64,000 nt of DNA from Macrostomum lignano (Eukaryota), in the NCBI GenBank assembly GCA_002269645.1, contig NIVC01000717.1:326822-390821 (forward strand), in the 5' to 3' direction. How positions within the stretch are numbered: position 1 is the first letter of the stretch; each line of letters starts with the position of its first letter. Position numbers and translations under genes: made by a program. The notes below the pieces were generated by a model. It was not told where the DNA came from and searched no databases. It saw nothing but the letters and a program-made list of their open reading frames with translations. Below, in pieces: positions 5,425 through 63,233 of the stretch.

Positions 5425-6314
5425 CAGGGGGCTCGCTATGGTTTTCATGGTGGGGGAAGGGGGAAGCCAAGAATTCGACATGTACAGACATGAATAAATT
5501 CAAACATCCACATTATTTTCAGAATCCGTGTTGTCAGCTCTTATTTAGCGAAGGCATTCATTTTGGCGCCGCAGGCACTCATTTTAGCACTGCAGGCACT
5601 CATTTTAGCACTGCAGGCACTTATTTTAGCACCGCAGGCACTCATTTTAGCACTGCAGGCACTCATTTTAGAACTGCGGGCACTCATTTTAGCACTGCAG
5701 GCACTCATTTTAGCACTGCAGGCACTCATTTTAGCGCCGCAGGCACTCATTTTAGCGCCGCAGACACTCATTTTAGCGCCGCAGTCACTCATTTTAGCGC
5801 CGCAGGCACTCATTTTAGCTCCGCAGGCACTCATTTTAGCGCCGCAGGCACTCATTTTAGCTCCGCAGGCACTCATTTTAGCGCCACAGGCACTCATTTT
5901 AGCTCCGCAGGCACTCATTTTAGCGCTGCAGGCACTCATTTTAGCACCACAGGCACTCATTTTAGCACCACAGGCACTCATTTTAGCGCCGCAGGCACTC
6001 ATTTTAGCACCACAGGCACTCATTTTAGCGCCGCAGGTACTCATTTTAGCGCCACAGGCACTCATTTTAGAACTGCGGGCACTCATTTTAGCACTGCAGG
6101 CACTCATTTTAGCGCCGCAGACACTCATTTTAGCGCCGCAGGCACTCATTTTAGCGCCGCAGGCACTTACTTTTTGGCGCCCTGAATCAAAATTATTTAT
6201 TTTTATACCGGGTCCCAAGTTGGAGTGTGGGGAGGTCGACAAAGCATTGGTATGTCCCCCATAGCTTTTACTGGGGAGTACATGTCCCCCTGTCCCCCCG
6301 TGGTGACGCCCCTG
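5425..6314. mobile_element. hAT-like MITE in the GPCR intron, with an internal inverted 21-bp array
   Basis: Imperfect TIRs CAGGGGGCTCGCTA ... TGGTGACGCCCCTG; flanking 8-mers ATTTAAAC (5417-5424) and GTTTAAAC (6315-6322) match 7/8, consistent with an 8-bp hAT TSD. Confidence 0.7.
5561..6181 (-). repeat. Same 21-bp minisatellite as 1-1950, inverted
   Basis: (GCAGGCACTCATTTTAGCGCC)n. Confidence 0.95.
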
Positions 6315-42154: not shown

Positions 42155-42424
42155 TCAGAGAATGTCAGAGTGACAGAGAATGTGAGAGCGAGGAATATGA
42201 AAGTGAGTGAGAATGTGAGAGTGAGTGAGAATGTGAGAGTAAGTGAGAATGTGAGAGTGAGTGAGAATGTGAGAGTGAGTGAGAATGTGAGAGTAAGTGA
42301 GAATGTGAGAGTGAGTGAGAATGTGAGAGTGAGTGAGAATGTGAGAGCGAGGAATATGAGAGTGAGTGAGAATGTGAGAGCGAGGAATATGAGAGTGAGT
42401 AAGAATGTGAGAGCGAGGAATATG
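42155..42424. repeat. 18/27-bp minisatellite, left part (interrupted by the LTR element)
   Basis: GAGAGTGAGTGAGAATGT and GAGAGCGAGGAATAT units. Confidence 0.93.
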
Positions 42425-43337
42425 TGTAGAGAGTTATTAGACCATACCGTAATGCTCTACTTAAAGTAATATTCTAAGGAAGTCAATTTCTTTCAAAATG
42501 AGTCATATCTATTTTAGGAATCACGCGCAAACAGAATGATTTAGAACCCTACATTGTTTGATCAAGGAACCGGATTTCAACAGCTGTATTTGTTTAACTC
42601 CATATATGGTAATGCTCAAACATGCATGACCGCTTAATCAAACATTTTTGACCTAAGTAAATACCCAATCCCAAACCGGTTTTTCTCCAAAATTTTGCTA
42701 TAAATATAAGTGAAAATTCAAGTCAAAAATTCAGACTCGGAGCGGTCTCTAAGAAGACACCGAAGAAATAAGAAGACCAATCTCTGAGGGACCATCCCTG
42801 TCCAATTGGTAAGCGTTTACCCGATTTAGTTAATTGTTAATAGCGCTAATAAAGTGATTGATTGAGTATACGAGAGCAGTTCATTGTCGATACATTTGAG
42901 AAAGGCCTCCTTGTTTCCTAGGATATTCCTAGAGGATTTATTGATTTAATTGAGTTATCCGTTACGTTTCGGACGTAACGAAGAAGCCGCCCTTCAGGAG
43001 GACCTATCACAGAAAATTAGAGAATTCAATTGTTCATTAGGGCGCAAGTTCTATTGTGAATTCCGAGCTCGAGGACCGTTAAGAAGTTCTGATTCGCTCT
43101 CGTTTGGTCGACCCACAGATAAAGGACACCAAAGAAAAACAGTGGTTCACCGGAACCGGTCGCCGTAACCGCTCAGCAAGCTTGCTATCCCGACGCGCCA
43201 CAGAACTCCACCGGCTGCCGACCCCAAGAGGATCCGCTGAAGTAAGTTATTTGAACTGATAAATACCTAGGCACTTGTTCCCCCGTGTCTAGAAGTGGGA
43301 GTTTTTGAGTGACTGATCACCACTCTTAAACTCTTCA
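42425..43337 (+). repeat. 5' LTR (913 bp)
   Basis: TGTAGA...CTTCA; TATAAATA at 42699, AATAAA at 42848; differs from the 3' LTR by 2 substitutions and one 5-nt indel on manual comparison. Confidence 0.97.
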
Positions 43338-43339
43338 AC

Positions 43340-43356
43340 TGGTGATCTCGCCCAGG
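43340..43356 (+). promoter_or_regulatory. Primer-binding site (tRNA not assigned)
   Basis: TGGTGATCTCGCCCAGG starts 2 nt after the 5' LTR. Confidence 0.75.
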
Positions 43357-43703
43357 CTCAAGCGCTACCAGGCTAGATCGCTGAAAGTACTTTGACACAA
43401 GTCCTTTGCGCAAATTTTTCTGAACTTTTTACCGAACCGCCATTGTTTGCATAGAGACCCTTTGATTCTTCGTGCACCGTTTTATACTTTTGTTAAATTT
43501 GCGAATATCCTATCTCAATTTCTTTCTTTGGTAAAGGCAACACAGAATTTTTTTTGCCCCCGTGTCCATTTTCCTTTCTTCCTTTAAGTAAATAAGAGCT
43601 TGCACACACACACAACACTTGTTCGCCACTTTGAAAGTCCAATCTGGAAAATCCTTTGGAAATTGATCCAGATCTGGTCCTCTTGCCGTTCCCATTTGAA
43701 AAT

Positions 43704-44600
43704 ATGGCTCGAAGAAACCCTACAGTGCATCGCGATGTCAAGGAAACTGTTGGAATGTATACCATGGATAAAGATTTTAACACCTTCATTGAACACTTCG
43801 ACCTTGTAACTCGCGAATACGGACTACAAAATCCAGAAAAGGCACTTCTTCTTCCTCCACTGTTAGAAGGTACTGCTCGAGAAATTTATGGCAAACTAAA
43901 TGCCGCCGCACAGCAAGACTATCATACTTTAGTTACACAACTGAGAGCACAATTCGCCAGATGTGGAACCAATCGATCTGTGCTTCTACACAAACTTCAT
44001 AATCGAAAAATGAGTCCGACGGAATCCTTCCTTACTTTCGTCGATGACGTCCGCAAAATTATTAAAGCGTTGCACCAGCCACCACCACCGAACCCAGGAG
44101 CTCAGCCTATCGGACCAGCAGAACTAGCTGCACGAGAAAGACAACGCCTTGCTGACCAAGAACAAAGCCTAATCCTCCATGTCATTAATAATGCTCAACC
44201 TTCGCTGCGAGACAGGTTGTTAAGAGAAACCATTGAGACAGAGGAACAATTAATTCGTTGCGGCATGCAATGGGAAGCAAGTGCCCCACTCCTGACTTCT
44301 CGTAGTAGTGATACGACACAATTGGGAGAACAATTGAGCAAACTCATGCAGCAGTACCAAACTTCTGCAATCATGCCACAGCGACAGAGATACGCTCCGC
44401 CACCCACTTGTTACACCTGTGGAAGAATTGGTCATTACGCCAGAGACTGCCGATCACGTGGCAATCCAAGACAATATAATGACAACAGAAGAAAAAATTG
44501 GACTCGTCCTCAAAATCGCAATTGGAACCCACCACAGAATAGACAAGGAAATGCCTTGGTACCTTATCGACAACAAAGAAATCCTCCTCCTCCAAGACAG
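43704..44600 (+). CDS. gag: Gag region: capsid-like domain and CCHC nucleocapsid knuckle
   Basis: FIEHFDLV..LLEGTAREIYGKL..LRAQF capsid pattern; CYTCGRIGHYARDC at 44409-44450; basic R/N/Q-rich tail. Confidence 0.9.
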
Positions 44601-47600
44601 CCTACTCAGGTCCGCAGACAATATGCTCAAGCTATTGAACCGGAATACACTCAAGTCATCGAACCAGAGTTTAAGATAGAGGATCTTATGCCGGATTTCA
44701 CAATCAATGTCCTTGAGGAGTTTGAAAGACGAAAAGATAGCACAAGCAGCGAAAGTAGCTGCATGATGGATTCTCTGTTTGAAGAAGATCCACCCATTCC
44801 TACCTCTTCTAAAGCAAGTCCAGTCTTCCGAGAAAACAAAAGACAACAACAAACTATTTCTAAGCAACAAAGCAATCTATTTAAAGTTCCGACGATCGAC
44901 AATCTTTCGGAAACTCACCGAGATGACAATTTCCAGGATCGTAAAGAAATGACAACACTTGAAGAAGACAGAGATCCAGCAACTTCTCAAAACATCTTTG
45001 AAGAAAGCGTTGACATGTTGCAGGTCCTAGTCGACGATATAGACCTGTCAGAAACACCTCCAACACAGGAACCAGACTATGAAAATATTGTCTCCCCTAG
45101 TCCAGTCCACGAAAAATGGAAACATGACAAGGCCACGAACACACAATCTAACCATTCGACAGATGAAAAGTTCGTACAGACGGAGGATGACACATATGTT
45201 TCAATGAACCTAGACTATGAAAGCGAATATGATGAACCGATAACAATAATGGAACCGGTTAACACTCCAACTGATGAGAATACAACTACACATCTTACCA
45301 ATATATCAAAATCAACCAACTTTATGCGTCCGATGTTGCAATCGCAGCCACCCACACCATTACCATGTTCCAACAAATGGCACTTTTCGACTCGCCTTAC
45401 TCCTCCGCCGTATCCTGAAGATAGTCATGACGAGATTGAAGACACTCCACCAGTACCAACAAGACGAAAGAAAAAACATCCGCTACTGCAATGCTTCCTC
45501 ACGATCTTGATGATGGCAATTGTTCCCACGGTACTGCCGTCTCCATCTCCAATGATCTGTCCCACTGATGGAGACATCCAGCCAGTCATTTACAAGATTC
45601 CTACGGAAATCAAATGCAGTTACTTTAAGACAAACCAAACCAAGCCACTACCACTAACTATTGAAATATACAAAGCAAATACAAAGAAGCATCGACAAAT
45701 GGGAATTGTGTGCTTCCGAGACAAGGATGAAATTGAAAAGGTTTGGCTGGTACAATGGAACCGAATCAGGTATTGGCAAACTTCGATGATGGTATCACAA
45801 GAAGAATGCTTTCGGTGGAATCAAACTCTGTTTTCCGAAGATGGTCAATTAAAACTTCATGAGACGTCCGCCAGCGGAGCACAGCTATTTCGCACAAAAA
45901 ATGTAGCCGATGGAAGATATGTCCATTATCATCAATCACGATGGCCTACATACTCAGTCTACAATAGCTACCTCATCCGAAATGTTTTATTCTACCACAA
46001 TCCATTTGACAACATGGAATCCTTACAGCTACCACTCGACCAGTGTCACTACAGCTCTGGATATTGTTCTACCCCTAACTACAACAAAGAAGAAGCTCAA
46101 AATTTACCCCTAGCACCGACTTATTTCCACGACTATCGATACCAAATTGAATACAGATCGGATTCCCGCTATGAGGAGCCTAGCCGAACCCGCAAATATT
46201 TCATTGCATGGGAAGTTAAAACTGAAATTGACTGCAAGCTACAAAAATATCACACTGTTAAAGGAAAATTGCTATCTAACACCTTCCTTGCCGACTCAGG
46301 AGATCTCGCTCTTACATTTCCTAAGCAACCAAGCTACACACACTTGAAATGTAAAGACAAGGACGAGCAACTAATCCTCTCCGACCAAGAAATACCAATC
46401 GTGCTTAAGGATATGGATAAGAATGTGTTCCTGAAAGTAGTAAATGGAACCTATCAGAGAAAAGATGTCATAGAACGACATAAGCGAGACCTACCTAAGC
46501 CTTCTCTAGTATCAGCACGACTTCTGGCAGCAAAACTAGCCGCCATGGAACATAAGCTACATAAGCAACTGAACTATCTGCATCGATCCATGGTCAAACT
46601 AACGTGCCGAATGCACGAAACCAGCCTGAATTACGCAAGACAGAACTATTATGTCAATCCCACGACGACCTTTAGGAAAATCACAGGTATTGAAGATGTC
46701 TTGGCAATTCCAGTTTACGGATATTTGCTAATCTATAAATGTACACCGATCCACCACTTTAACATCTTGCCATCAAATACTACAACAACCTGTTACGACA
46801 AACCTCGAATCGAGGCCTTTTACAAGGGAAGGCGCATCCGAGGATTTTTGGACACTGTCCACAATATTATTGTTGGAACCGCCATTCCAAGACCATGTAC
46901 AAACTCAGCCAACTATTTCAACTTAAACGATCTACTACACCAAATTTCGTCGGCAGGCGATATTAAAAACATTTCAAACTCGCAAGTTATTGTTGACGAG
47001 ACTTACGAAATGACGGACCTCGAAGTAAAATTCAATAAAACAACATACAAACCCTTTGGAGATATTAAACTAGACGAAATCACCCCAGGATGGACTATCA
47101 ACGATTTCCTGCAGGTTTTTATTTCACAACGGCAAGTCCTGACAAAACTGTTCACGGAACGACAGCAACGAGATGCAGATCGACTTACATCTCCAATAGG
47201 AATGACTATGCACAATGCCATTCAATCGTTTTGGTCAAATAGCTTTCTGGACCTAATACAAGGACGAGGAAGTCTATACCAAGGTTTTCTTTTCTCCAGT
47301 GCTTGCATTGTATGGATCTACTTAGTGCTACTCATTCTTGTCACAGTAGTCCGATGCGCAGCAAGAAATTGTCCACAAACTCGAGGCATCTTTCAAATAA
47401 TCAAACAAACAGACACTACCACTACAGGAGAAGAACCAACCGAAGAGACACCTATGCAAGTTCAAGAAATTCGACCAGAACCTACAGCACCAGAAACCTC
47501 AAACATTTATCCAAAAATCGATTTCAAGCCAGCAATTCCTCCGCCAATGTCACCTCCACTACCAATCGACCCAAAATGGCCAGCCAACTACGTCTGTACT

Positions 47601-50600
47601 CTCCAAGCCAATATGGGAAGAGCAATGGCTCAAGTACTTGTCAACAACAGGCCCAGCAAAGCACTGCTTGATTCTGGAAGCTCCATCACTGTCATTACTA
47701 AGAGACTATATGACAAACTACAACTTCGAATGCGACCATCATCCATCGCTGTTGCTGGAGCAGGTGGACATGCGCTTAATATCCTTGGACAAGTTGGGAT
47801 TATGCTCAAACTGGCAAATAAACAACTCCCTGTTCAAGCATTTGTTATCGACCACCTTCCAAGTCAAGATGTTATCATTGGAATCGACACATTCCAAAAA
47901 CTGAATTTACCCTTGACATTTGATTTTAACAAACAGACATTCAAACTAGACAACGTAGAACACCCATTGGTCAGCCAAGTTCATTTACAACCTAAAGTTC
48001 ATCTCCGACAAGATGTATTCATACAGCCTGAAAGCACTTGTTGGGTTAAGGCTTATCTAGTAAATAACGAAGACGTCGAAGAAGCTATGATTTTCGAACC
48101 AAGAAAGAAACTACTAACAACAAAGGAAGTTCTAATTCCAACGGCATTGGTCCTGATCACATCAGAAAAAGTTATTCCGGTACAGATTGTCAACCCTCAC
48201 CAACATCCCGTTAAGATCTACGCAGGAACATGCATGGGACACCTCAACACACAAGCCTCCGTCATGCTGATTCAACATACAAAAACAACAAGGATGTCAA
48301 AGCAACAATTCTTACAACAAATTGATCTCTCGCAAAGTCCCATTACGGAAGGACAAAAAACACAGGTCAGAGATCTACTTTGGAAGTACAATGACGTCTT
48401 TTGTCATCATGATTACGACATTGGTCGCGCTCGCGACATCAAGCAGAAAATCGAACTGCTACCCCACCAGGAACCCATCCAATGCAAACCATACCCAGTA
48501 GCAAAACATCTGCAACAACATTTTGATGAAATCATCGAAAAAATGCTCAAGGCCGGAATCATCAAACGAACAGTCTCAGCATATTCATCACCGTGTCTAC
48601 TAGTTGAAAAAAAGGAAACAAATGAAAGACGACTTGTCTGTGACTTTCGAGTCCTAAATAAATACATCCCCACAGATCAACAAAGTCTACCAAAGATTTC
48701 GGAACTATTGGCACGACTGAATACAGCTACTCTCTTCACCGTATTTGATCTACGACATGGCTTTTGGCAAATTGAACTTGAAGAAGAATCAAAACAATAT
48801 ACAGCATTCAAGACCTACAAGGGAGAAGTCTTTGCGTACCAGAGAAGCCCAATGGGGATTTCCAACTCCCCAGCGACCATGAGCCGCTTAACAGCCTACA
48901 TGCTAGCGGGATGTACGAATCTATTGCATTATGTGGACGATATTCTCGCTTTCGGCGATAATTTCGAACAACTACTGAGTGTCATGGAACAAGCTCTCTT
49001 TCTACTTCAGAAACAAGGACTAAAACTACAACCTACAAAATGTAAATTCTGCAGAGATTCAGTCCGATATCTGGGACATCATGTTTCAGCAAGAGGAATT
49101 TCACCCGACCCTAATAATGTCGAAAAGGTCAAGAAGTTCCCCAAGCCTACAACACTTACAAAACTACAATCATTCCTTGGATTAGCACAGTACTTCCGAA
49201 AATTCTTACCAAACTTCGCGCAAACTGCAAAGCCATTATATGAGTTGTTGAAGTTTCCCAAATGGAAGGAAGAAAATTGGAAAACGGAACAGCAAAACAG
49301 TTTTGATAAAATTAAACAGCAACTAACCAGCGACGCTCTGCTCAAACACCCAGACTTTCAAAAGCCGTTTATTATCGAAACCGATGCATCAGGAAGTGGT
49401 TTAGGAGCTGTACTACTTCAACAAACAGATCAGAAAAAGGAAAAACCAATTGCCTTTATCAGCCGAGCCCTGCGTCCAAATGAAACAAAATGGTCCGCCA
49501 CCGAACGTGAATTACTAGCGATTTTATTCGCTCTACGACAGTTTCATTACTACATCTACGGATCACCGCTACCAACCATCATCCGCACAGACCACGCACC
49601 GCTGACTCATGTTGTCAAAACAAAAGGACAAACGAATAACAGACTTATCCGGATGGTCCTCAAAATTCAGGACTATAACTTTCATCTCGTCTATAAACCA
49701 GGACCTACAAACAAGGCCGCGGATGCGCTATCAAGAGCATATGAAGTCAATGCTGTCCACCCCATTCCAACCATGACGGATCTACTGAAAGCGCAACAAG
49801 AAGATAATTTCTACAAAGCTGTATACGAAGACACAGAAGAAATGCAAAAACCGCTCACCAAGATCGAAAAGAAATTTTTACGGAAACAAGGCAATAATCT
49901 CATCTTCAAAGAACTAGCACTTTACTGGCTGCACAATAATACCCCAAGATTGTACCTACCATACAACTATCGCGCCGCAATCCTACATGAACTACACGAC
50001 ACACCCCTAGCCGGACATTTATCCGCCAAGAAAACAATCCACAGAATAGCCCAGTTCTATTTCTGGCCAACAATGAATGCAGACATCCGCAACTACTGCC
50101 TACAATGCCACTCATGTGCTTCAACAAAGACTGGAAGAAGACAAAAACCAGAACTTCAATCCGTACCAAAGACAACCACATGGGACATTGTATCACTTGA
50201 TATTACCGGACCACTACCGCCAGCTCGACAACATGCTATCGATTACACTTACATTCTTACCGCATTAGACGTGTTCTCTAAATTTGCTGTTGCCATTCCA
50301 CTGCCTGACATTACAGCCACTACAGTTGCAATGGCCTTCTACAATGAAATTATCTGCAAATACGGAACTCCAAAGACACTAACCTCCGACAATGGTACAC
50401 AATTTACGTCGCAACTATTCCAACAGGCGGCTAAATTACTAAATATCCAACAAATTTTCACCTCCACCTACAATCCAAAAGCTAACCTAGTAGAACGATT
50501 CCATAGAAATCTATACGAAATGTTGACACACTTCGTCTATAAGCAACCTGAAGATTGGATCATATACCTGCAGTCAGTGACAATCGCCTACAACAGTGCA

Positions 50601-51146
50601 GTACACCGTTCAACAGAGAACACACCGTTTTTCCTTATGTTCTCTCGAGACTTTCAGCCACCAAGCCTACTAGTTCAAAAACTATTACCTTCTCAGTACG
50701 TGGAAACGCCAACAACACTACAAAAGTTTACTTCGCAGCTACACCTGGCATGGCAAATCGCGAAACACAATTTAGAAAATCAACAGGCAGTAGTCACCAC
50801 CAGCAATCATACATCTACTCTACAAGTCGGAGACATCGTTTACCTACATTACCCTGCGCAACATACACATAAACACGCACTTAAATACAAAGGACCATTC
50901 CGAGTAACGGCATTGGTATCGGCAACAACGGCACGCCTCGCTAATATCCAGGATCCACATCAACCTCAGTTCTATGTTCACATTCAACGTCTAAAACGTA
51001 TCACTAACGACACTACATTCCTCCCAGACCTACAAAATCCAGACCACACAAAAACAACAAATAAACACATTGCCACTGCACACGCCGAAACACAAACAAC
51101 AAACGCACCACCTGTCGGTCATACGTACAACCTAAGACCTCGTTAA
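43704..51146 (+). CDS. gag-env-pol: Single Gag-Env-Pol polyprotein, about 2480 aa from the first ATG
   Basis: One open frame with no stop or frameshift (ORF track 43656-51146; ATG at 43704). Confidence 0.95.
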   Translation: MARRNPTVHRDVKETVGMYTMDKDFNTFIEHFDLVTREYGLQNPEKALLLPPLLEGTAREIYGKLNAAAQQDYHTLVTQLRAQFARCGTNRSVLLHKLHNRKMSPTESFLTFVDDVRKIIKALHQPPPPNPGAQPIGPAELAARERQRLADQEQSLILHVINNAQPSLRDRLLRETIETEEQLIRCGMQWEASAPLLTSRSSDTTQLGEQLSKLMQQYQTSAIMPQRQRYAPPPTCYTCGRIGHYARDCRSRGNPRQYNDNRRKNWTRPQNRNWNPPQNRQGNALVPYRQQRNPPPPRQPTQVRRQYAQAIEPEYTQVIEPEFKIEDLMPDFTINVLEEFERRKDSTSSESSCMMDSLFEEDPPIPTSSKASPVFRENKRQQQTISKQQSNLFKVPTIDNLSETHRDDNFQDRKEMTTLEEDRDPATSQNIFEESVDMLQVLVDDIDLSETPPTQEPDYENIVSPSPVHEKWKHDKATNTQSNHSTDEKFVQTEDDTYVSMNLDYESEYDEPITIMEPVNTPTDENTTTHLTNISKSTNFMRPMLQSQPPTPLPCSNKWHFSTRLTPPPYPEDSHDEIEDTPPVPTRRKKKHPLLQCFLTILMMAIVPTVLPSPSPMICPTDGDIQPVIYKIPTEIKCSYFKTNQTKPLPLTIEIYKANTKKHRQMGIVCFRDKDEIEKVWLVQWNRIRYWQTSMMVSQEECFRWNQTLFSEDGQLKLHETSASGAQLFRTKNVADGRYVHYHQSRWPTYSVYNSYLIRNVLFYHNPFDNMESLQLPLDQCHYSSGYCSTPNYNKEEAQNLPLAPTYFHDYRYQIEYRSDSRYEEPSRTRKYFIAWEVKTEIDCKLQKYHTVKGKLLSNTFLADSGDLALTFPKQPSYTHLKCKDKDEQLILSDQEIPIVLKDMDKNVFLKVVNGTYQRKDVIERHKRDLPKPSLVSARLLAAKLAAMEHKLHKQLNYLHRSMVKLTCRMHETSLNYARQNYYVNPTTTFRKITGIEDVLAIPVYGYLLIYKCTPIHHFNILPSNTTTTCYDKPRIEAFYKGRRIRGFLDTVHNIIVGTAIPRPCTNSANYFNLNDLLHQISSAGDIKNISNSQVIVDETYEMTDLEVKFNKTTYKPFGDIKLDEITPGWTINDFLQVFISQRQVLTKLFTERQQRDADRLTSPIGMTMHNAIQSFWSNSFLDLIQGRGSLYQGFLFSSACIVWIYLVLLILVTVVRCAARNCPQTRGIFQIIKQTDTTTTGEEPTEETPMQVQEIRPEPTAPETSNIYPKIDFKPAIPPPMSPPLPIDPKWPANYVCTLQANMGRAMAQVLVNNRPSKALLDSGSSITVITKRLYDKLQLRMRPSSIAVAGAGGHALNILGQVGIMLKLANKQLPVQAFVIDHLPSQDVIIGIDTFQKLNLPLTFDFNKQTFKLDNVEHPLVSQVHLQPKVHLRQDVFIQPESTCWVKAYLVNNEDVEEAMIFEPRKKLLTTKEVLIPTALVLITSEKVIPVQIVNPHQHPVKIYAGTCMGHLNTQASVMLIQHTKTTRMSKQQFLQQIDLSQSPITEGQKTQVRDLLWKYNDVFCHHDYDIGRARDIKQKIELLPHQEPIQCKPYPVAKHLQQHFDEIIEKMLKAGIIKRTVSAYSSPCLLVEKKETNERRLVCDFRVLNKYIPTDQQSLPKISELLARLNTATLFTVFDLRHGFWQIELEEESKQYTAFKTYKGEVFAYQRSPMGISNSPATMSRLTAYMLAGCTNLLHYVDDILAFGDNFEQLLSVMEQALFLLQKQGLKLQPTKCKFCRDSVRYLGHHVSARGISPDPNNVEKVKKFPKPTTLTKLQSFLGLAQYFRKFLPNFAQTAKPLYELLKFPKWKEENWKTEQQNSFDKIKQQLTSDALLKHPDFQKPFIIETDASGSGLGAVLLQQTDQKKEKPIAFISRALRPNETKWSATERELLAILFALRQFHYYIYGSPLPTIIRTDHAPLTHVVKTKGQTNNRLIRMVLKIQDYNFHLVYKPGPTNKAADALSRAYEVNAVHPIPTMTDLLKAQQEDNFYKAVYEDTEEMQKPLTKIEKKFLRKQGNNLIFKELALYWLHNNTPRLYLPYNYRAAILHELHDTPLAGHLSAKKTIHRIAQFYFWPTMNADIRNYCLQCHSCASTKTGRRQKPELQSVPKTTTWDIVSLDITGPLPPARQHAIDYTYILTALDVFSKFAVAIPLPDITATTVAMAFYNEIICKYGTPKTLTSDNGTQFTSQLFQQAAKLLNIQQIFTSTYNPKANLVERFHRNLYEMLTHFVYKQPEDWIIYLQSVTIAYNSAVHRSTENTPFFLMFSRDFQPPSLLVQKLLPSQYVETPTTLQKFTSQLHLAWQIAKHNLENQQAVVTTSNHTSTLQVGDIVYLHYPAQHTHKHALKYKGPFRVTALVSATTARLANIQDPHQPQFYVHIQRLKRITNDTTFLPDLQNPDHTKTTNKHIATAHAETQTTNAPPVGHTYNLRPR
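45480..47360 (+). CDS. env: Env-like class III fusion glycoprotein (herpes gB/chuvirus G-like) embedded in the polyprotein
   Basis: Signal-like stretch after RRKKK; 12 ectodomain Cys; 6 N-glycan sequons; RHKR furin site at 46476-46487; heptad helix; VNPTTTFRKITGIEDVLAIPVYGYLLIYKCTPI resembles the gB NP...GDV...C motif; TM at 47286-47351. Confidence 0.8.
47600..51146 (+). CDS. pol: Pol region: aspartic protease, RT, RNase H, integrase
   Basis: LLDSG at 47664; RLVCDFR, DLRHGFWQI, YVDD at 48930; ETDASG, ERELLA, TDHAPL; H-H-C-C zinc finger, LDITGP, SDNGTQF, VERFH. Confidence 0.97.
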
Positions 51147-51277
51147 ATTATTCGCTTCATGTCCCCGTGTAGTGACCGGGATAAAGAATAGCACTACAGC
51201 TTCCTCAAGCTTGTCGTAAGAGGCGACTAAATCCTTGTTTTCCTACAAACGCTCACACAACTACGACAAACACGACA

Positions 51278-51928
51278 ATGGATTGTCCTATCTGTCTCGG
51301 AGAATTTTCATGTAAACTACCTTGTATATGTGTCAATAGACACCAGGTGTGTGGTTCTTGCTTAAGCCTTGCACATTACAAAAAACCTTTAAAAAATTGC
51401 CCTATGTGTCGAGGTAATCTCCGTCAATGCATGATATGCAACTCCTGGCGCACTGAACAATATTGCTTAAATCAACATTTTATGTGCACACAATGTATTA
51501 AGAAGCTTGCTTATCGCTCCATTTGTCAGTGTCCTATATGCGATGCCACCCCTTTACCTAAAGTTAACAACAAACTTGCATGCATTCAAGCGGACTACAA
51601 CCTACAGCTTCACCCATTCACTTATGCTCTTTTTCCATCACATGCTATAATTATCCGCCTCAGATCATGGCCCATACCACGTGCTGCTCATAAAACACGT
51701 AAATACCTCGTTCGCTATTCCTCTTCCTACGGTTCTAGACTCCGGCAATTATCTCCACAAGAAATTGAACATAAGCTGTTTAAAATTGTTAACGATATGA
51801 ATTTTCACCCATGCCCCATCCTCTGTACAACTCTACCTGCACTCATTCTGCGTAATGAGGACTTGTCTTATATATTACCACCCCAAGAATCATATGACTA
51901 TAATAGTTCCGCTTCAGAAATTGATTAA
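51278..51928 (+). CDS. Accessory ORF A: tandem RING-HC fingers and an unknown C-terminal domain (216 aa)
   Basis: C-x2-C-x11-C-x3-H-x2-C-x2-C-x12-C-x2-C, followed immediately by CMIC..CLNQHFMCTQC..CPIC. Confidence 0.8.
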   Translation: MDCPICLGEFSCKLPCICVNRHQVCGSCLSLAHYKKPLKNCPMCRGNLRQCMICNSWRTEQYCLNQHFMCTQCIKKLAYRSICQCPICDATPLPKVNNKLACIQADYNLQLHPFTYALFPSHAIIIRLRSWPIPRAAHKTRKYLVRYSSSYGSRLRQLSPQEIEHKLFKIVNDMNFHPCPILCTTLPALILRNEDLSYILPPQESYDYNSSASEID

Positions 51929-52001
51929 AATACCATGCACCCACAGATATTGCAACCATTCTTGCACAGATATTACTTATCACATTGACCATTTTTCAGA
52001 C

Positions 52002-52601
52002 ATGGATAGCGACGAGTGCATTGTTTGTTATGAAGACACTGAACAGTATGTCTACTGTCAGCATGGGCATAAGTTCTGCTATAACTGCTGCACAACGGAT
52101 AGAATAGACAAATGCCCGCTATGCCGCGCACCACCTACCCTGTGCCAGGTATGCAATACAACACCGCAACAAAGGATGTGCGCCAACGGACACTGGGTCT
52201 GCCGAGATTGTGCTCTAAAAATTCGGTGCCGCGACTATAAGCATTGCATAACTTGTGCAGCGCCAATATCTAAGGAAATTTACGCCGGAACAACAACATT
52301 ACCAAAGATCCAACTTACAAAGGAGACCATGGACAGTATGACGGCCAAGGAACTAGCAACAGCTATACGAACCTGGCCAATACCATTCAACAAGAGAGAC
52401 CATTTGGAATATCTTTTTGACTTGGTACGTCAATATGCGGCGCATCCAATAAATACTACGAGTACAACTGAAGAGATCTACCTGGAATTCCTCAACGCCA
52501 CCGAATCAACACAATTTACGCCGATACAGCACTTACTGTGGCCACTCGCGAGATTGACAACCAAAGTAAACGATATACTGAATAATACGCTTTCCTATTA
52601 A
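52002..52601 (+). CDS. Accessory ORF B: paralogous tandem RING-HC protein (199 aa from ATG 52002)
   Basis: CIVC..CQHGHKFCYNC..CPLC, then CQVC..CANGHWVCRDC..CITC; shares R-x-WPIP with ORF A. Confidence 0.8.
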   Translation: MDSDECIVCYEDTEQYVYCQHGHKFCYNCCTTDRIDKCPLCRAPPTLCQVCNTTPQQRMCANGHWVCRDCALKIRCRDYKHCITCAAPISKEIYAGTTTLPKIQLTKETMDSMTAKELATAIRTWPIPFNKRDHLEYLFDLVRQYAAHPINTTSTTEEIYLEFLNATESTQFTPIQHLLWPLARLTTKVNDILNNTLSY

Positions 52602-52780
52602 CAATAACAATGCATCCTGCCAAGCAACACAATAACAATGTGACCTACCTATCTACCTATCCATCTACTATACTACTACTGGTTCAAAATTTCTAATCCT
52701 TAAATACATTTTCATGTTTATTAGAAGATAAAACCCCACTTCACCGCTTTAACTTTAAAATTCGGGACGAATTTTTCGTG

Positions 52781-52791
52781 AAAAGGGGAGA
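52781..52791 (+). promoter_or_regulatory. Polypurine tract
   Basis: AAAAGGGGAGA, 3 nt before the 3' LTR. Confidence 0.9.
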
Positions 52792-52794
52792 TAT

Positions 52795-53712
52795 TGTAGA
52801 GAGTTATTAGACCATACCGTAATGCTCTACTTAAAGTAATATTCTAAGGAAGTCAATTTCTTTCAAAATGAGTCATATCTATTTTAGGAATCACGCGCAA
52901 ACAGAATGATTTAGAACCCTACATTGTTTGATCAAGGAACCGGATTTCAACAGCTGTATTTGTTTAACTCCATATATGGTAATGCTCAAACATGCATGAC
53001 CGCTTAATCAAACATTTTTGACCTAAGTAAATACCCAATCCCAAACCGGTTTTTCTCCAAAATTTTGCTATAAATATAAGTGAAAATTCAAGTCAAAAAT
53101 TCAGACTCGGAGCGGTCTCTAAGAAGACACCGAAGAAATAAGAAGACCAATCTCTGAGGGACCATCCCTGTCCAATTGGTAAGCGTTTACCCGATTTACT
53201 TAATTGTTAATAGCGCTAATAAAGTGATTGATTGAGTATACGAGAGCAGTTCATTGTCGATACATTTGAGAAAGGCCTCCTTGTTTCCTAGGATATTCCT
53301 AGAGGATTTATTGATTTAATTGAGTTATCCGTTACGTTTCGGACGTAACGAAGAAGCCGCCCTTCAGGAGGACCTATCACAGAAAATTAGAGAATTCAAT
53401 TGTTCATTAGGGCGCACGTTCTATTGTGAATTCCGAGCTCGAGGACCGTTAAGAAGTTCTGATTCGCTCTCGTTTGGTCGACCCACAGATAAAGTTAAGG
53501 ACACCAAAGAAAAACAGTGGTTCACCGGAACCGGTCGCCGTAACCGCTCAGCAAGCTTGCTATCCCGACGCGCCACAGAACTCCACCGGCTGCCGACCCC
53601 AAGAGGATCCGCTGAAGTAAGTTATTTGAACTGATAAATACCTAGGCACTTGTTCCCCCGTGTCTAGAAGTGGGAGTTTTTGAGTGACTGATCACCACTC
53701 TTAAACTCTTCA
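52795..53712 (+). repeat. 3' LTR (918 bp)
   Basis: Near-identical to 42425-43337 plus a 5-nt insertion near 53494. Confidence 0.97.
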
Positions 53713-54925
53713 TATGAGAGTGAGTGAGAATGTGAGAGCGAGGAATATGAGAGTGAGTGAGAATGTGAGAGTGAGTGAGAATGTGAGAGTGAGTGAGAAT
53801 GTGAGAGTGAGTGAGAATGTGAGAGTGAGTGAGAATGTGAGAGTGAGTGAGAATGTGAGAGTGAGTGAGAATGTGAGAGCGAGGAATATGAGAGTGAGTG
53901 AGAATGTGAGAGTGAGTGAGAATGTGAGAGTGAGTGAGAATGTGAGAGCGAGGAATATGAGAGTGAGTGAGAATGTGAGAGTGAGTGAGAATGTGAGAGC
54001 GAGGAATATGAGAGTGAGTGAGAATGTCAGAGTGAGTGAGAATGTGAGAGCGAGGAATATGAGAGTGAGTGAGAATGTGAGAGCGAGGAATATGAGAGTG
54101 AGTGAGAATGTCAGAGTGACAGAGAATGTGAGAGCGAGGAATATGAGAGTGAGTGCGAATGTGAGAGTGAGTGAGAATGTGAGAGTGAGTGAGAATGTGA
54201 GAGTGAGTGAGAATGTGAGAGTGAGTGAGAATGTGAGAGTGAGTGAGAATGTGAGAGTGAGTGAGAATGTGAGAGTAAGAATGTGAGTGAGTAAGAATGT
54301 GAGTGAGTAAGAATGTGAGTGAGTGAGAATGTGAGTGAGTAAGAATGTGAGTGAGTAAGAATGTGAGAGTAAGAATGTGAGTGAGTAAGAATGTGAGAGT
54401 AAGAATGTGAGTGAGTAAGAATGTGAGTGAGTAAGAATGTGAGAGTATGAATGTGAGTGAGTAAGAATGTGAGTGAGTAAGAATGTGAGTGAGTAAGAAT
54501 GTGAGTGAGTAAGAATGTGAGTGAGTAAGAATGTGAGTGAGTAAGAATGTGAGTGAGTAAGAATGTGAGTAAGAATGTGAGTGAGTAAGAATGTGAGTGA
54601 GTAAGAATGTGAGTAAGAATGTGAGTGAGTAAGAATGTGAGAGTAAGAATGTGAGTGAGTAAGAATGTGAGCGAGTAAGAATGTGAGAGTAAGAATGTGA
54701 GTGGGTAAGAATGTGAGCGAGTAAGAATGTGAGTGAGTAAGAATGTGAGTGAGTAAGAATGTGAGTGAGTAAGAATGTGAGAGTAAGAATGTGAGTTAGT
54801 AAGAATGTGAGTGAGTAAGAATGTGAGTGAGTAAGAATGTGAGAGTGAGTAAGAATGTGAGTGAGTGAGAATGTGAATGAAATGCGAGGGTGACAGGATG
54901 TGAGAGCGACAGAGAATGTGAGACT
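53713..54925. repeat. Continuation of the 18/27-bp minisatellite, grading into 14-18-bp GTAAGAATGTGAGTGA units
   Basis: Same units as 42155-42424. Confidence 0.93.
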
Positions 54926-57823: not shown

Positions 57824-60800
57824 TCAGTGCTGCTTATTCTTCAATAGCTGTTTCAATCTTTGATGCTCCCTAGGCTCCAGAAAGCCGACTAGCACCCTAT
57901 CCATCACACGGATCGGGTGCTTCCGATAGCCGAATACTCGAACCCAATCAGACGGCACGTGTCTCACAGGTGGATTATTCTGTATCCGCTTGCTCCGCCT
58001 CACAGCCGCAGTAGCATTAGTGGCATTCGACAGTTCACTAGCCGACGCTAGACGATATTCGTCAACTTCGCTAGTTAACAATTTTACTTGTCTAAGCGTT
58101 GACATATCGAATTCCGTTAGGCCTTGCTCGACTGTGAAAAAATTGAAGCAATCCAACGGTAGCAGATTTGGCAACAGACTGACGCGCTCTACTTTGGCTT
58201 CTTTAGTAAGAAAATCGTGCGGATCGTAAAAGTATGAAGTTGCACTGAACTCGTTAGCGCTCTCTAGATCTTCAAAATTATCAAAAACTGCCGCCTTGTT
58301 TAGACTAGACAAGTCAGACTGAGTCTGGGTGTCCGCGTCGCTGCAGCTTAGAGCTTCCGTTGCTTGGTTGACAGATTGAATTTCCTGTCGAGATTCTGCA
58401 ACATCTTCAACTTGATGCTCTTGAAGTGTCCGTACTTCATCTGGTTCATGTTGATCGTAAACTAACGGCGACGGAGCTGGAACTGACACCCGTCTGGAAA
58501 CTACTTTATCCAGTTGATGTTCGTCTTCATCAACATCCAAAATCGGAGATGGAGGCGCAACAGATCGAATATATAACTGTCTAACGGATGACTGATCCAT
58601 AGTTTCCTCCGGTGCCACTGTATGAAAGATGTTGGACTCGTGCCAAGACGATAAATATTGACAACGCATAGCGGTATCGTCCACAGTGAATTCGGTTTCA
58701 GTCAGATAAGACTTAGCGACGGTGAGACTGGTACCTGTCGCTCTTGCTCTCTGACGCTGACGAACAATCGATGGCAACAATTCGCGTCTAATAGAACTAT
58801 TGTCAATGGTAGCCTGCGACACTGTCGCGTACATATTCGACGCGTGTACAGAGTCAATGTATTGTCGACGAATGCTAGAATCATTGACAGTTACTAGGCA
58901 CTCGGTTGCGTAGAGATTAGACGATTGCAAATCTGGTTGCGATTGGCTTTTGTAACTTGACACACCGTCGCACTGGATACCTTCCTCGACAAGCTCCACT
59001 GACCGTGGATTAGATGAACTAATAATCGAACGAGGAACCATTGCAACTTTGTGAGGATCCGAGGACGCGGAAGCGTACCCAGTGGTGGTCGCACTGTCGC
59101 AAGACGTTGCTACGGGCAAAGTTGACACCACCGCTACAGCTGGCTGACAACGCATCGGACTCAACGAATGCTGAGACACCGAATGGACAACAGAACAAGT
59201 GCTAGAACCGGCTTCAACAACATTAGCAAAATTCACAGCTTGACTACTTCTGACCTGTGCAGCATTGTTGATTTTAGCAGGAGAAGACGTTCGACAATCT
59301 TCTAGCTTCACACCTGCAGGCTGATCAGTGATAAATTGAGTTGCAGTTACTGCAGTTTTTCCCTCGGCAACCAAATCAGCTTTAAAATTTTGACTGTCAA
59401 TTCCAGTTTGACTGTGCAGTGCTTCAGTGTTTGACTGTTGAATAATGGTGAACTCCGGCTGCATACATGGCAAGGTTTTATCATCGAGTCCAGACGATGT
59501 AACGAATGAAGATTTAGCGCGTTTAATCTTATCGCGATTGCTGGACTGGGATATCCTTGATGTGGAGTCACTGGATTGATAATCTGGTTTCTGAAGTAGC
59601 TTATCAATTACAGATGAAGAACTTTGCTGCCAAATCGATTCAGCATGTTGTGACGCTGCTGAGCCTAGAGACTTTACGCGATGGATGCTGCGGCCAAGAG
59701 AACAACCTACTTCAAGATTTTCAACCCTGGAATTTTTTAGCTGAAGCGTTTCAGAGGCCGAATTCCTGCGCAAAAGACTACGTCTGATAGAATTGGCAGG
59801 TTGCAGGCTCAGTCGAGTCGAGTCACTGATTTGCGATGTTTCGGGTTGCTGGCTCAGTTCGATTGCATCGAGATTCTGCGATCTGTCATGCGTACGACTT
59901 TTCAGATGACGACTTCCACAGCCAAGCTGAGATTCGTTCGAATTATGACTTTTATTAGTCATCTCAAGCCTTTCGGGTTGCAGACTCTGTTAGTGAGTTG
60001 CTGTGTTGAGATCTCACCGGTAGCAGACTCGGTTGGCTTGACACACTAAGCTGAGATCTCTTTGGTTGCAGACTCGGTCGTCCTGACTCATTAAGCTGAG
60101 ATCTCTCTGGTTGCAGATTCGGTCGGTTTGACTCACCAAGATGAGATATCTCTGGTTGCAGACTCGGTCGGTTTGACTCATTAAGCTGAGATCTCTCTGG
60201 TTGCAGACTCGGTCGGTTTGACTCACTAAGCTGAGATCTCACCGGTAGCAGACTCGGTCGTCCTGACTCACTAAGCTGAGATCTGTCTGGTTGCAGACTC
60301 GGTCGGTTTGACTCATTAAGCTGAGATCTCTCTGGTTGCAGACTCGGTCGTCCTGACTCACTAATCTGAGATCTCTCTGGCTGCAGACCCGGCCGTTGTG
60401 AGTCACCCATTTGAGAACGCTCCTGTTTCAGACTCAGTCGCTTTGAGTCTTCGAGCTGAGATCTGTTCGGTTGCAGATTCAGTCGATTTGAGTCTCCAAG
60501 CTGAGATCTGTCTGGTTGCAGACTCAGCTGAATTGAATCACCAAGCTGAGATGCCTCTGGTTGTAGACTCAGTTGAATTGAGTCGCAAAACTGAGATCTG
60601 TCTGGTTGCAGACCCGGCCGTTGTGAGTCACACATTTGAGAACTCTCCTGTTTAAGACTTAGTCGGTTTGAGTCTTTATGCTGAGATCTCTCTGGTTGCA
60701 GACTCGATCGTCTTGACTCACTAAGTTGAGTTTCTTCTGGTTGCAGACTCAGTCGGTTAGAATCTTCGTGCTGAGATCTGTCACGTTGCAGACTCGGCCG

Positions 60801-63233
60801 TTGTGAGTAGCTTATCTGAGATCTCTCTGGTTGCTGACTTGGTCGTCTTGACTCACTAAGCTGAGATCTGTCTGGTTGCAGACTCGGTCGCGTTTGAGTC
60901 TCCGAGCTGTGAACTGTCTGGTTGCAGACTTAGTCGGTTTGAGTCTCCGAGCTGTGAACTGTCTGGTTGCAGACTTAGTCGGTTTGAGTCTCCGAGCTGT
61001 AAACTGCCTGGTTGCGGACTCGGTCGGTTTGAGTCTCCAAGCTGAGATTTCTCTGGTTGTAGACTCAGATGAATTGAATCACCAAGCTGAGATCTGTCTG
61101 GTTGCAGACTCGATCGTCTTGACTCACTAAGCTGAGATTTCTCTGGTTTTAGACTCAGTTGACTTGCATCGCATATCCGAGATCTCTCTTGGTGTAGACT
61201 CGGTCGCGACTTGCTGGATAGCTGAGACGCAACCGTTGAAGCTGGACTTCATCATCGCAGAGCTCAGAAGTGGCACAAGCAAGACTGACGGCGACATTAG
61301 CTCGACTAGGTGTGCTTGCCTGTAGACGCAGTTTTATCAGTACACTCGCCAGCTACTACTACTGATTCACCAGTAGTAGTAGACGATTTTGAATCATCCG
61401 ACGTTAAATCGCTGTCATTGCTACTGGATTGACTAAATGAATCATCTTGGCTGACATAAATACTGACGCCTAGAGCATCAGCTGAGTTAGTCGACAAACC
61501 AGAGTAGTGAGCACTGCTATAGGACCTAACCGAACTGCTTTTTGTTTAACGACTGAGGCGCTTTCTACATTGGCTTGCGAATCAGACAGAGAAACGGCTC
61601 TCGGTTACAACTCTGACTAGTTGAAGACGCAATTAACTCCTCTATCGACTGTCCATCGGCAAACTTTCGGTTTTGAGACTTCTGAGAAGTTGACAGATCA
61701 GTGAGATTTTTTACTACAGACGATGAACTAAGCTGCTCTTTACAGCTAACACTTTTATTCGTCGATTCCACAGACTGATTAGTCAAGCCCCGATCAGCTG
61801 ACCGACAGCTGTTGCGAATAAGCAACTTTTCAATAGGCTATTCCTTGCTGCAGCAGTTTTCTACTGCGTTCTCTGCTGCGATCGAACAGCAGAGCTGCGG
61901 CTGCCACCCTGGGCCGAGCTGATGGAGCCAGATGGCAATAATTGCGCGCGGCTCAAGCGATTTATCGATGCTAGCTGACAGATTTAGACTGGCTATAGCG
62001 GATAATGCCATCGATGGTTGCTTTTGAATGCATCCGCTTTGATTGTTGAATCTATTTGCAGCTAGCAGCATCATCTGGCTGGTGAATATCATCAGACATG
62101 CTGACACATTCGCTTACACCGCTACTCTGCATAGCTATTGAATCTAACAATAGCGTCGCTTTACTTTTGCCGTCCAATCGTTTTTTAGTTCGTTGTCCAC
62201 TTCTAGAGTGTCTAGCATCGGGTTCGGCGTCTGCTTGGGACTTAGAGAGGCTAGGAGGTTGCTATTCCTTTCATGACTCTTATTAGTCTTAGTTGTCCAC
62301 TCGTTGGCAACGATTAATTTCTCAGCCGGCCTGGCGCGATCCCGACTGCGACCTCGTTGGTAAACCATAGTGGACATTGCCAAAATTTCCATACGCCGTT
62401 GCTTCACTGTCGCAAGCAATCGAAGATAAACTAAGATTTGGCGGAGCTCGATTAATCTGACTTTCCGTGGAGCCTACAGCTGTAGAGACAGTGGTCGCAG
62501 ACGAGGCTACCAACGTTTAGCAGATTTTGATTTGTTAACGACAGTAGGGGACTGCTTGACATCAGCTGCGGCTGCTACCCTTTCATTCTCTTTATCATCT
62601 GTCCCAGCGGTAGCATTGCTACTGTCTGCAAAGCTTACAGAAGATATTTTACGACGGTGACGACGCTTAACAACTCGGACAGCATTCTGCTTGGTGCAGC
62701 AGCAGCAGCAGCAGAAGGTCGAGAAGTGATGGCGGGGCTACGCAGTAAGGAACTGCTTAAAGTCGGACAGTTAACCGTACTGTTTGGAGAATCAGTCAAG
62801 CCTGTCTGACCGCGTCTTTTAGATTGCCTTTTGTTCCGCCAAGGGATTCTACATGGCTAACAGCAAGAGTGCTATCTAAAGCTTCTACTAAATGAGCCTG
62901 CTGGTCCTGTTGCTGCGACTGTTGTTGGTTTACTTGAGGACAAATCTGCTTCTGAATGACAGCTACAGAGCTCAGAGCCAGTGTTGTTTCTGGTGATAAA
63001 TCAATTCGACTAAGTCGCATCTGTTGCCTATTAGCCTTGCTAACTCTGCCATTTTGCTGCGAGGTTGCCGTTTGACTTTCTGAGCCCGACTGGCGCATCG
63101 GGTTTTCATGTCTGGTTTTTGGCGACCAATTTAATTGGCTGGCTGTAAATTGTTGTTTTTTAATTTCAGTTAAAACTGTATAAGGGCCAATTTTTAGAAA
63201 AGCATGAAACCTAGATGTGTTGTTAAATAACAA
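57824..63233 (-). pseudogene. Decayed long Ser-rich ORF of unknown function; the 3' 712 codons (57824-59962) are still open
   Basis: Consecutive Ser-rich ORF fragments; in-frame stops at 62144, 61838, 61306; frameshifts near 60892 and 59990 are visible against the 45-bp repeat register. Confidence 0.55.
59980..61230 (-). repeat. 45-bp coding-like tandem repeat (SQLSESNRPSLQPER)n
   Basis: CAGCTTAGTGAGTCAAACCGACCGAGTCTGCAACCAGAGAGATCT-type units on the - strand. Confidence 0.9.

Follow-up and report, generated by a model that had tools for sequence, protein, structure and literature searches.

The window, by which we mean the whole stretch of 64,000 nucleotides of Macrostomum lignano DNA that was analyzed, contains one full-length LTR element, spanning positions 42425–53712 on the plus strand (Table 1). 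The two LTRs of the element are 2 substitutions and one 5-nt indel apart. One open reading frame (P0001, positions 43635–51146) runs for 2,503 codons from stop to stop; its first Met is at 43704 and it encodes Gag, Env and Pol in one frame. As assigned by Pfam, the domain order of Pol is PR-RT-RH-IN, as in Ty3/gypsy elements (Metaviridae), and the hallmarks of that group (TG..CA LTRs, target-site duplication, PBS and PPT) are all present. Among the closest RT matches in the homology search are proteins with the names Gypsy, Ty3 or 297-like. The window element is a young gag-env-pol Ty3/gypsy 'errantivirus' with a gB-type Env. Errantiviruses of the gB-type GAG-ENV-POL kind have been reported from Platyhelminthes, Nematoda and Bryozoa (Chary & Hayashi, PMC13524379, main text); since that survey describes them, the element type is already known.

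Table 1. Features of the LTR element in the window
Feature	Positions	Strand	Remarks
Target-site duplication TATG, 4 bp	42421..42424	+	repeat at 53713–53716
5' LTR, TG...CA, 913 bp	42425..43337	+	GTAAGT splice donor inside, at 43242
Primer-binding site (PBS), 12 nt	43340..43351	+	
Gag and acidic/Pro-rich spacer, predicted cytosolic	43704..45479	+	CCHC knuckle at 44409–44450
PPPY, candidate NEDD4/WW motif	45402..45413	+	family-A specific, chance level
Internal signal/anchor segment	45480..45536	+	RRKKKH just before; hydropathy; N-in topology predicted
Env ectodomain, gB-like class III fusogen	45537..47285	+	profile match and Foldseek
Env transmembrane anchor	47286..47342	+	hydropathy 2.69
Env cytoplasmic tail / pre-protease linker	47343..47579	+	last residues Trp-Pro (presumed protease site)
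PTAP, candidate TSG101-binding late domain	47481..47492	+	
IYPKI, candidate ALIX-binding YPx[LI] late domain	47505..47519	+	
Pol, same frame, protease through to stop	47580..51146	+	
RT	48606–49085	+	Pfam
RNase H	49278–49676	+	Pfam
Integrase	49959–50477	+	Pfam
Accessory ORF 1, Cys-rich, RING-like, 216 aa	51278..51928	+	weak Gin match only
Accessory ORF 2, C3HC4 RING, 199 aa	52002..52601	+	PF13920, E 5e-7; acceptor AG at 51998–51999
Polypurine tract (PPT)	52780..52791	+	
3' LTR, 918 bp	52795..53712	+	

The element is inserted in an 18-bp tandem repeat array (42157–42424 and 53713–54000). Elsewhere in the window, positions 1–2100 and 5549–6173 are occupied by a tandem array of a 21-bp unit, one block of which is inverted and whose long ORFs are probably repeat artefacts, and the minus strand of 57824–60929 carries two long ORFs of 721 and 321 aa. 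The two RING-like accessory ORFs of the element are located downstream of pol and upstream of the 3' LTR. Two are also present in family B, a sister family of the same genome, and at least one in locus L061. Judged by their sequences, they may be E3 ligases encoded by the element. One contig of run X11, which we guess to be RNA, shows a GT..AG joint 43241 > 52000 that connects the donor in the LTR with the second RING ORF; the joint is not listed for runs X1, X5 and X16, and it is likely to represent a spliced subgenomic message. None of the runs that contain the element is recorded as RNA, and no splice joint into env was found among the 15 listed of the 20 joints in the contigs of the four runs. 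With a single frame, Gag, Env and Pol are expected in equal amounts, unless these are altered by processing or splicing. Six matches of 98% identity (among L005–L010, L029 and L030) end at one same place, and in the two that were read Gag and half of Env are fused in frame to the end of integrase. The corresponding joint, 46514 > 50931, is present in runs X5, X11 and X16; these copies are a multi-copy non-autonomous derivative without anchor, tail and enzymes.

The env region sits between gag and pol, and its ectodomain (∼580 aa) is bracketed by two segments detected by hydropathy, the signal segment at aa 616–634 and the Env anchor at aa 1218–1236. The ectodomain contains six N-glycosylation sequons and one furin-type site, RHKR, at 46476–46487. 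It matches the profile PF24664 with an E of 3e-4, short of the cut-off, and a PDB sequence search with the ectodomain gave no match. The predicted structure of the C-terminal 387 aa of Env has a pLDDT of 67.5 and a pTM of 0.39; when this model was used in Foldseek, every listed match was a herpes gB, the best with an E of 1.8e-8. The linker between the anchor and the protease is ∼80 aa in length, and Trp-Pro is found at its end in 9 of 10 tails from the same genome; retroviral proteases cut at aromatic-Pro sites. Hydropathy and charge would place both the spacer and the tail on the cytosolic side, and they predict a double-pass topology for the polyprotein.

In an earlier, sequence-only reading of this DNA, all three types of ESCRT late-domain motif were proposed to flank the env insert. 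PPPY, RPEPTAP (47472–47492) and IYPKI are indeed located where they had been placed, all in frame with the long ORF, and each is the sole match of its class (PPxY, P[TS]AP and YPx[LI], respectively) within the 2,503 aa. PPPY, at aa 590, is 26 aa upstream of the first hydrophobic segment, whereas the PTAP-containing motif (aa 1280–1286) and IYPKI (aa 1291–1295) are 46 and 54 aa downstream of the second. The classes were assigned to their host partners according to the late-domain literature (PMC8402826, cited part). When each region of the window copy was shuffled, the p value was 0.026 for PTAP in the tail, 0.0045 for [LMI]YPx[LI] in the tail and 0.08–0.11 for PPxY in the spacer. Because such single-copy chances prove little, support for the motifs must come from relatives. 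The nearest relative, 77% identical, has PMPTAP where the window element has RPEPTAP. The seven-letter match to HIV-1 p6 is subfamily-specific, hence we rejected it as significant; the string RPEPTAP occurs in 16 papers of the literature, and all five of those listed concern HIV. YPKI carries Ile in place of the Leu of YPXnL, and had been called non-canonical. The relatives do not bear this out, as they have LYPSI, MYPSI, LYPKI, LYPTL and IYPTI, so that both residues occur among them, and the generic Pro-less YxxPhi is not enriched.

Searches of the same genome gave 40 matches with the DNA query and 146 with the protein query, from which 38 stretches were fetched; only natural frames were used. 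These represent nine families, to which we assigned letters, with one representative each picked by identity (23–77% to the window element). L027 and L028 have no usable frame, and the A2 copies L015 and L016 appear to be without the anchor-to-protease region. PTAP and IYPKI occur together in the tails of families A1 and A2, PSAP and IYPTI in family G, and PSAP and LYPTL in family D. The tails of families E and F have PSAP, family C has only LYPKI, and no motif was found in family H. Family B contains all three motif types within 19 residues, in the order LYPSI-PTAP-PPxY. Tail P[TS]AP is thus present in 7/9 families (0.26 expected from shuffles), [LMI]YPx[LI] in 6/9 (0.05 expected) and PPxY in 1/9 (0.54 expected). 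With family A left out and close families merged, P[TS]AP is still found in 3/5 (0.10 expected), and so is [LMI]YPx[LI] (3/5, 0.02 expected). Among seven of the families, P[TS]AP occurs outside the tail in 1/7 Gag and spacer regions, 0/7 ectodomains and 0/7 Pol regions; [LMI]YPx[LI] is found in 0/7 of each. Two structural features were also observed: a long Thr/Pro-rich, mucin-like insert at the Env furin region of families D, E and F (L039–L048; seen in L039 and L043), and three Gag CCHC knuckles in families C and G (L037, L038 and L050; seen in L037 and L050).

Family B, 60% identical in amino acids to the window family, allowed the motifs to be followed through many loci. PTAP and [LM]YPSI are present in all 16 loci read, with codons varying synonymously; PPxY is present in 15 of the 16 in the same frame, with constant P, P and Y and with N, T, G or I as x. 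The order of the motifs is reversed between families A and B. A quick tree method places the families of this genome in a single clade of the Env tree; they therefore count as one long retention with reordering and not as nine events. Within that limit, PTAP and YPKI proved to be conserved across divergent families, both together in the tail behind the anchor. One copy (L013, 94% identical) has PNAP and IYPRI, an open frame of 2,502 codons and LTRs identical at 982/982 positions. As this copy is very recent and yet has PNAP, a recent insertion can do without PTAP in cis; we propose that redundancy accounts for this, or help provided in trans, or an intracellular route.

Relatives from other organisms were collected as a set of 67 Env-bearing proteins, after the exclusion of eight cluster duplicates and of five proteins that came from the same genome or the same species. 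Word-indexed homolog searches with Env gave only two proteins each, and the set was drawn from other searches. A fixed rule defined a tail in 38/67; the other 29/67 were truncated or unparsed, one of which (P0127) shows PPTY. One near duplicate was dropped and two proteins fell in the clade of the M. lignano families, leaving 35 tails. P[TS]AP is found in 6/35 of these (0.29 expected), [LMI]YPx[LI] in 3/35 (0.20 expected) and PPxY in 2/35 (0.85 expected), which, like the 1/9 in the M. lignano families, is at chance level; any of the three is present in 10/35 and none in 25/35. The six P[TS]AP rows are spread over six distinct positions of the Env tree, two of them being labelled as nematodes, Auanema and Haemonchus. 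We also considered that late domains had moved to Gag in these relatives, and rejected it for two of the classes: 0 of 17 outside Gag and spacer regions has a P[TS]AP or [LMI]YPx[LI] that could stand in.

The tails are Pro-rich (9–16%), and several controls address the background. When all 4-mers were counted in 43 tails, P[ST]AP was the commonest (11 tails), followed by the overlapping [ST]APP (8); among 12 letter orders compared, the only frequent ones are P[TS]AP and [TS]APP, which overlaps it. The pooled control regions contain 5 P[TS]AP compared to 2.17 expected, 2.3-fold above the shuffles; this total includes 3/35 outside ectodomains compared to 0.39 expected, two of the three sharing one homologous site. 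Because the control regions exceed it, the shuffle null is somewhat generous; for the outside clades, P is 7e-5 after the 2.3-fold correction and 0.027 after correction by the worst single ratio (7.7x). As a second control we used pre-protease stretches of env-less Ty3/gypsy elements, of which 114 candidates, less 10 duplicates and 53 in which the protease motif was absent or the lead was too short, left 51. Any of the motifs was found in 0/51; compared to 9/35 outside tails this gives a Fisher p of 1.5e-4, for a control that is soft because its stretches are less Pro-rich (6%) and taxonomically mixed. Generic sorting signals were examined in the same tails. The Pro-less YxxPhi is at chance level (4/9 compared to 3.2 expected, and 13/37 compared to 15.8), whereas its Pro form is enriched, and dileucine motifs are also at chance; a generic enrichment of YxxPhi or dileucine was rejected as explanation. 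PTAP and YPx[LI] are enriched beyond chance in the tails, and the pre-Env PPPY is not. By these statistics, the candidate P(T/S)AP and [LMI]YPx[LI] motifs of the tail are under selection across divergent families.

The pre-Env PPPY is specific for family A and at chance level. The nearest relative has other sequence at this position and, as judged by eye, PPAY ∼20 aa further upstream. Within 100 aa before the signal segment, PPxY was found in 2/9 families, both of family A and at differing positions, and in 0/7 of the others; we rejected a conserved PPxY ahead of Env, as it would consist of the two family-A cases only. The proposal that all three types flank the env insert therefore holds for the family of the window element; beyond it the conserved unit is the tail. 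Taken alone, the pre-Env PPPY is best read as a chance match. It is possible, if doubtful, that this PPPY is the turnover equivalent of the PPxY in the family B tail.

The host genome contains genes for the TSG101 UEV, the ALIX V-domain and HRS, and HECT genes, the last counted at the level of the HECT family. The host UEV matches human TSG101 with an E of 2e-43. By our own reading of the alignment, it keeps T58, Y68, N69, P71, T92, M95 and V141 and has His at human Tyr63; we take T58, Y63, Y68, N69, P71, T92, M95 and V141 to be the pocket residues of the TSG101 UEV. Human ALIX has PSAP right behind its V domain. Host ALIX retains PSAP at the same place, suggesting that this animal reads the P[TS]AP code. 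For host HRS, two stretches were read as unassembled exons, and their coding frames showed no P[TS]AP. Between exons of the host HRS gene lies an intronless frame of 777 codons (L058:2080–4410), which presumably resembles kindlin/FERM. Complex prediction for the host UEV with a 50-aa piece of the tail gave a score of 0.00, which is evidence neither way.

The candidate late domains for TSG101 and ALIX probably sit on the cytoplasmic tail of Env and not on Gag. We propose that the element would be translated as a single polyprotein, with Gag, Env and Pol in one chain. Gag and the spacer would remain cytosolic, the internal signal segment would thread the ectodomain into the ER lumen and, as hydropathy and charge suggest, the anchor would bring the tail and Pol back to the cytosol. 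The viral protease probably frees itself at Trp-Pro, leaving an Env tail of ∼80 aa. As all three proteins would derive from a single chain, this tail would be at the inner face of the membrane where capsids would assemble. By analogy to retroviral late domains, its motifs would most likely recruit host TSG101/ESCRT-I and ALIX there, and enveloped particles would be pinched off where capsids gather; PPxY may serve as an optional third signal, in the tail of family B and possibly in the spacer of family A. Tentatively, and with slightly less than even confidence, we extend this to the gag-env-pol errantiviruses of flatworms and nematodes: they may be budding enveloped viruses with the late domain on the Env tail, in which capsid, fusogen, scission signal and enzymes all come from one polyprotein threaded through the membrane. 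Scattered lineages would have retained or re-evolved the signals, and the element's own RING proteins may add ubiquitin as a further ESCRT handle. Selection for budding of enveloped particles had been suggested before from the motifs of the window copy; conservation across divergent families supports it for the two tail motifs and not for PPPY, and budding itself is what we infer.

The main rival is ESCRT-dependent endosomal sorting of Env, which we consider unlikely. The tail motifs would bind TSG101 and ALIX but serve to sort Env, or an Env-Pol precursor, to multivesicular endosomes, where trafficking, turnover or transfer of the exosome type would follow. Every sequence statistic given above fits this equally well, and sequence alone cannot separate it from budding; the motifs are on a glycoprotein tail, the usual place of sorting signals, and not on a capsid protein, and ZAM particles have been described to travel along endosome/exosome routes (PMC3383448, cited part). 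However, the single polyprotein would tether the tail with Gag and Pol at the membrane, the site where scission is needed, and endocytic signals of the generic kind (YxxPhi, dileucine) show no enrichment.

A different partner for the motifs is very unlikely in our view. Here YPx[LI] would serve as a tyrosine signal for AP-2, and P[TS]AP would be an SH3/WW-type Pro-rich site or the context for protease release. YPKI satisfies YxxPhi by definition, and the Pro-rich tails end at a presumed protease site; however, it is the Pro form of YxxPhi that exceeds chance, the letter orders other than P[TS]AP and its overlap are not frequent, and the distance from motif to Trp-Pro ranges from ∼15 to 38 aa. 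That the motifs are unselected chance matches in Pro-rich linkers combined with shared ancestry is quite improbable: the own-genome families form one clade, most outside tails are motif-free, the P[TS]AP background exceeds the shuffles and the PNAP copy L013 was recently mobile, but the motifs persist, and even reorder, amid diverged flanks, the independent outside set stays enriched after the background correction, and the env-less controls have none.

If budding is the correct reading, these signals matter for how such elements may exit cells, as their retention in distant relatives suggests. Env by itself points to entry and late domains point to exit; late-domain retention would therefore be a separate line of sequence evidence that such elements pass through an extracellular stage in invertebrates other than insects. 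For direct testing, the tail motifs offer short peptides and named host genes. A 2012 review described the use of ESCRT by errantiviruses as not known (PMC3383448, cited part), and a 2026 survey described the transmission of most env-bearing Ty3/gypsy elements as unknown (PMC13524379, main text). The terms 'late domain', 'ESCRT' and 'RING' have no occurrence in the main text of the latter, and we found no report of late domains on a Ty3/gypsy Env tail in the literature within reach, to which most subscription journals do not belong.

Drosophila gypsy and ZAM have the gene order gag-pol-env. Like the window element, they are Env-bearing Ty3/gypsy elements, with cell-to-cell infection described for gypsy and ZAM (PMC3383448, cited part); different from it, their Env is of F type (PMC13524379, main text), and their candidate YxxL motif lies in Gag (PMC3383448, cited part). 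The errantiviruses of PMC13524379 are closer, as they share the Ty3/gypsy Pol and the gB-type Env between gag and pol. The one Macrostomum row shown in that survey has the same 12-nt PBS as the window element and an LTR of ∼864 bp, and it corresponds to sister family B, in which the PBS is likewise identical; the window family, with its LTR of 913 bp, does not match that row.

Late domains have been described for Gag and also for structural proteins of other RNA viruses (PMC8402826, cited part). Those of retroviruses (PTAP and YPXnL in HIV-1 p6; PSAP, LYPAL and PPPY in MLV) resemble the tail motifs in being of the same classes, multiple, and placed in a Pro-rich linker before the protease; there they are in Gag and their function is shown, whereas here they lie behind a membrane anchor, on Env, with a predicted function (PMC8402826, cited part). 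If this is true, a late domain on the tail of the fusogen instead of on Gag or matrix is an unusual design. The foamy virus Env leader, with its long cytosolic segment before the signal, type II topology and Env-dependent release, may serve as a model for the spacer and signal segment that hold PPPY; different from the window element, foamy virus has a separate env gene (PMC7828637, cited part), and its late domains are located on Gag (PMC8952818, cited part). In bluetongue virus, it is also a viral membrane protein and not the capsid that carries the signals: NS3 has PSAP and PPRY, which recruit TSG101 and NEDD4. Different from the Env described here, NS3 is a non-structural protein of a non-enveloped dsRNA virus, and is neither a fusogen nor part of a Gag-Pol polyprotein (PMC7409164, cited part).
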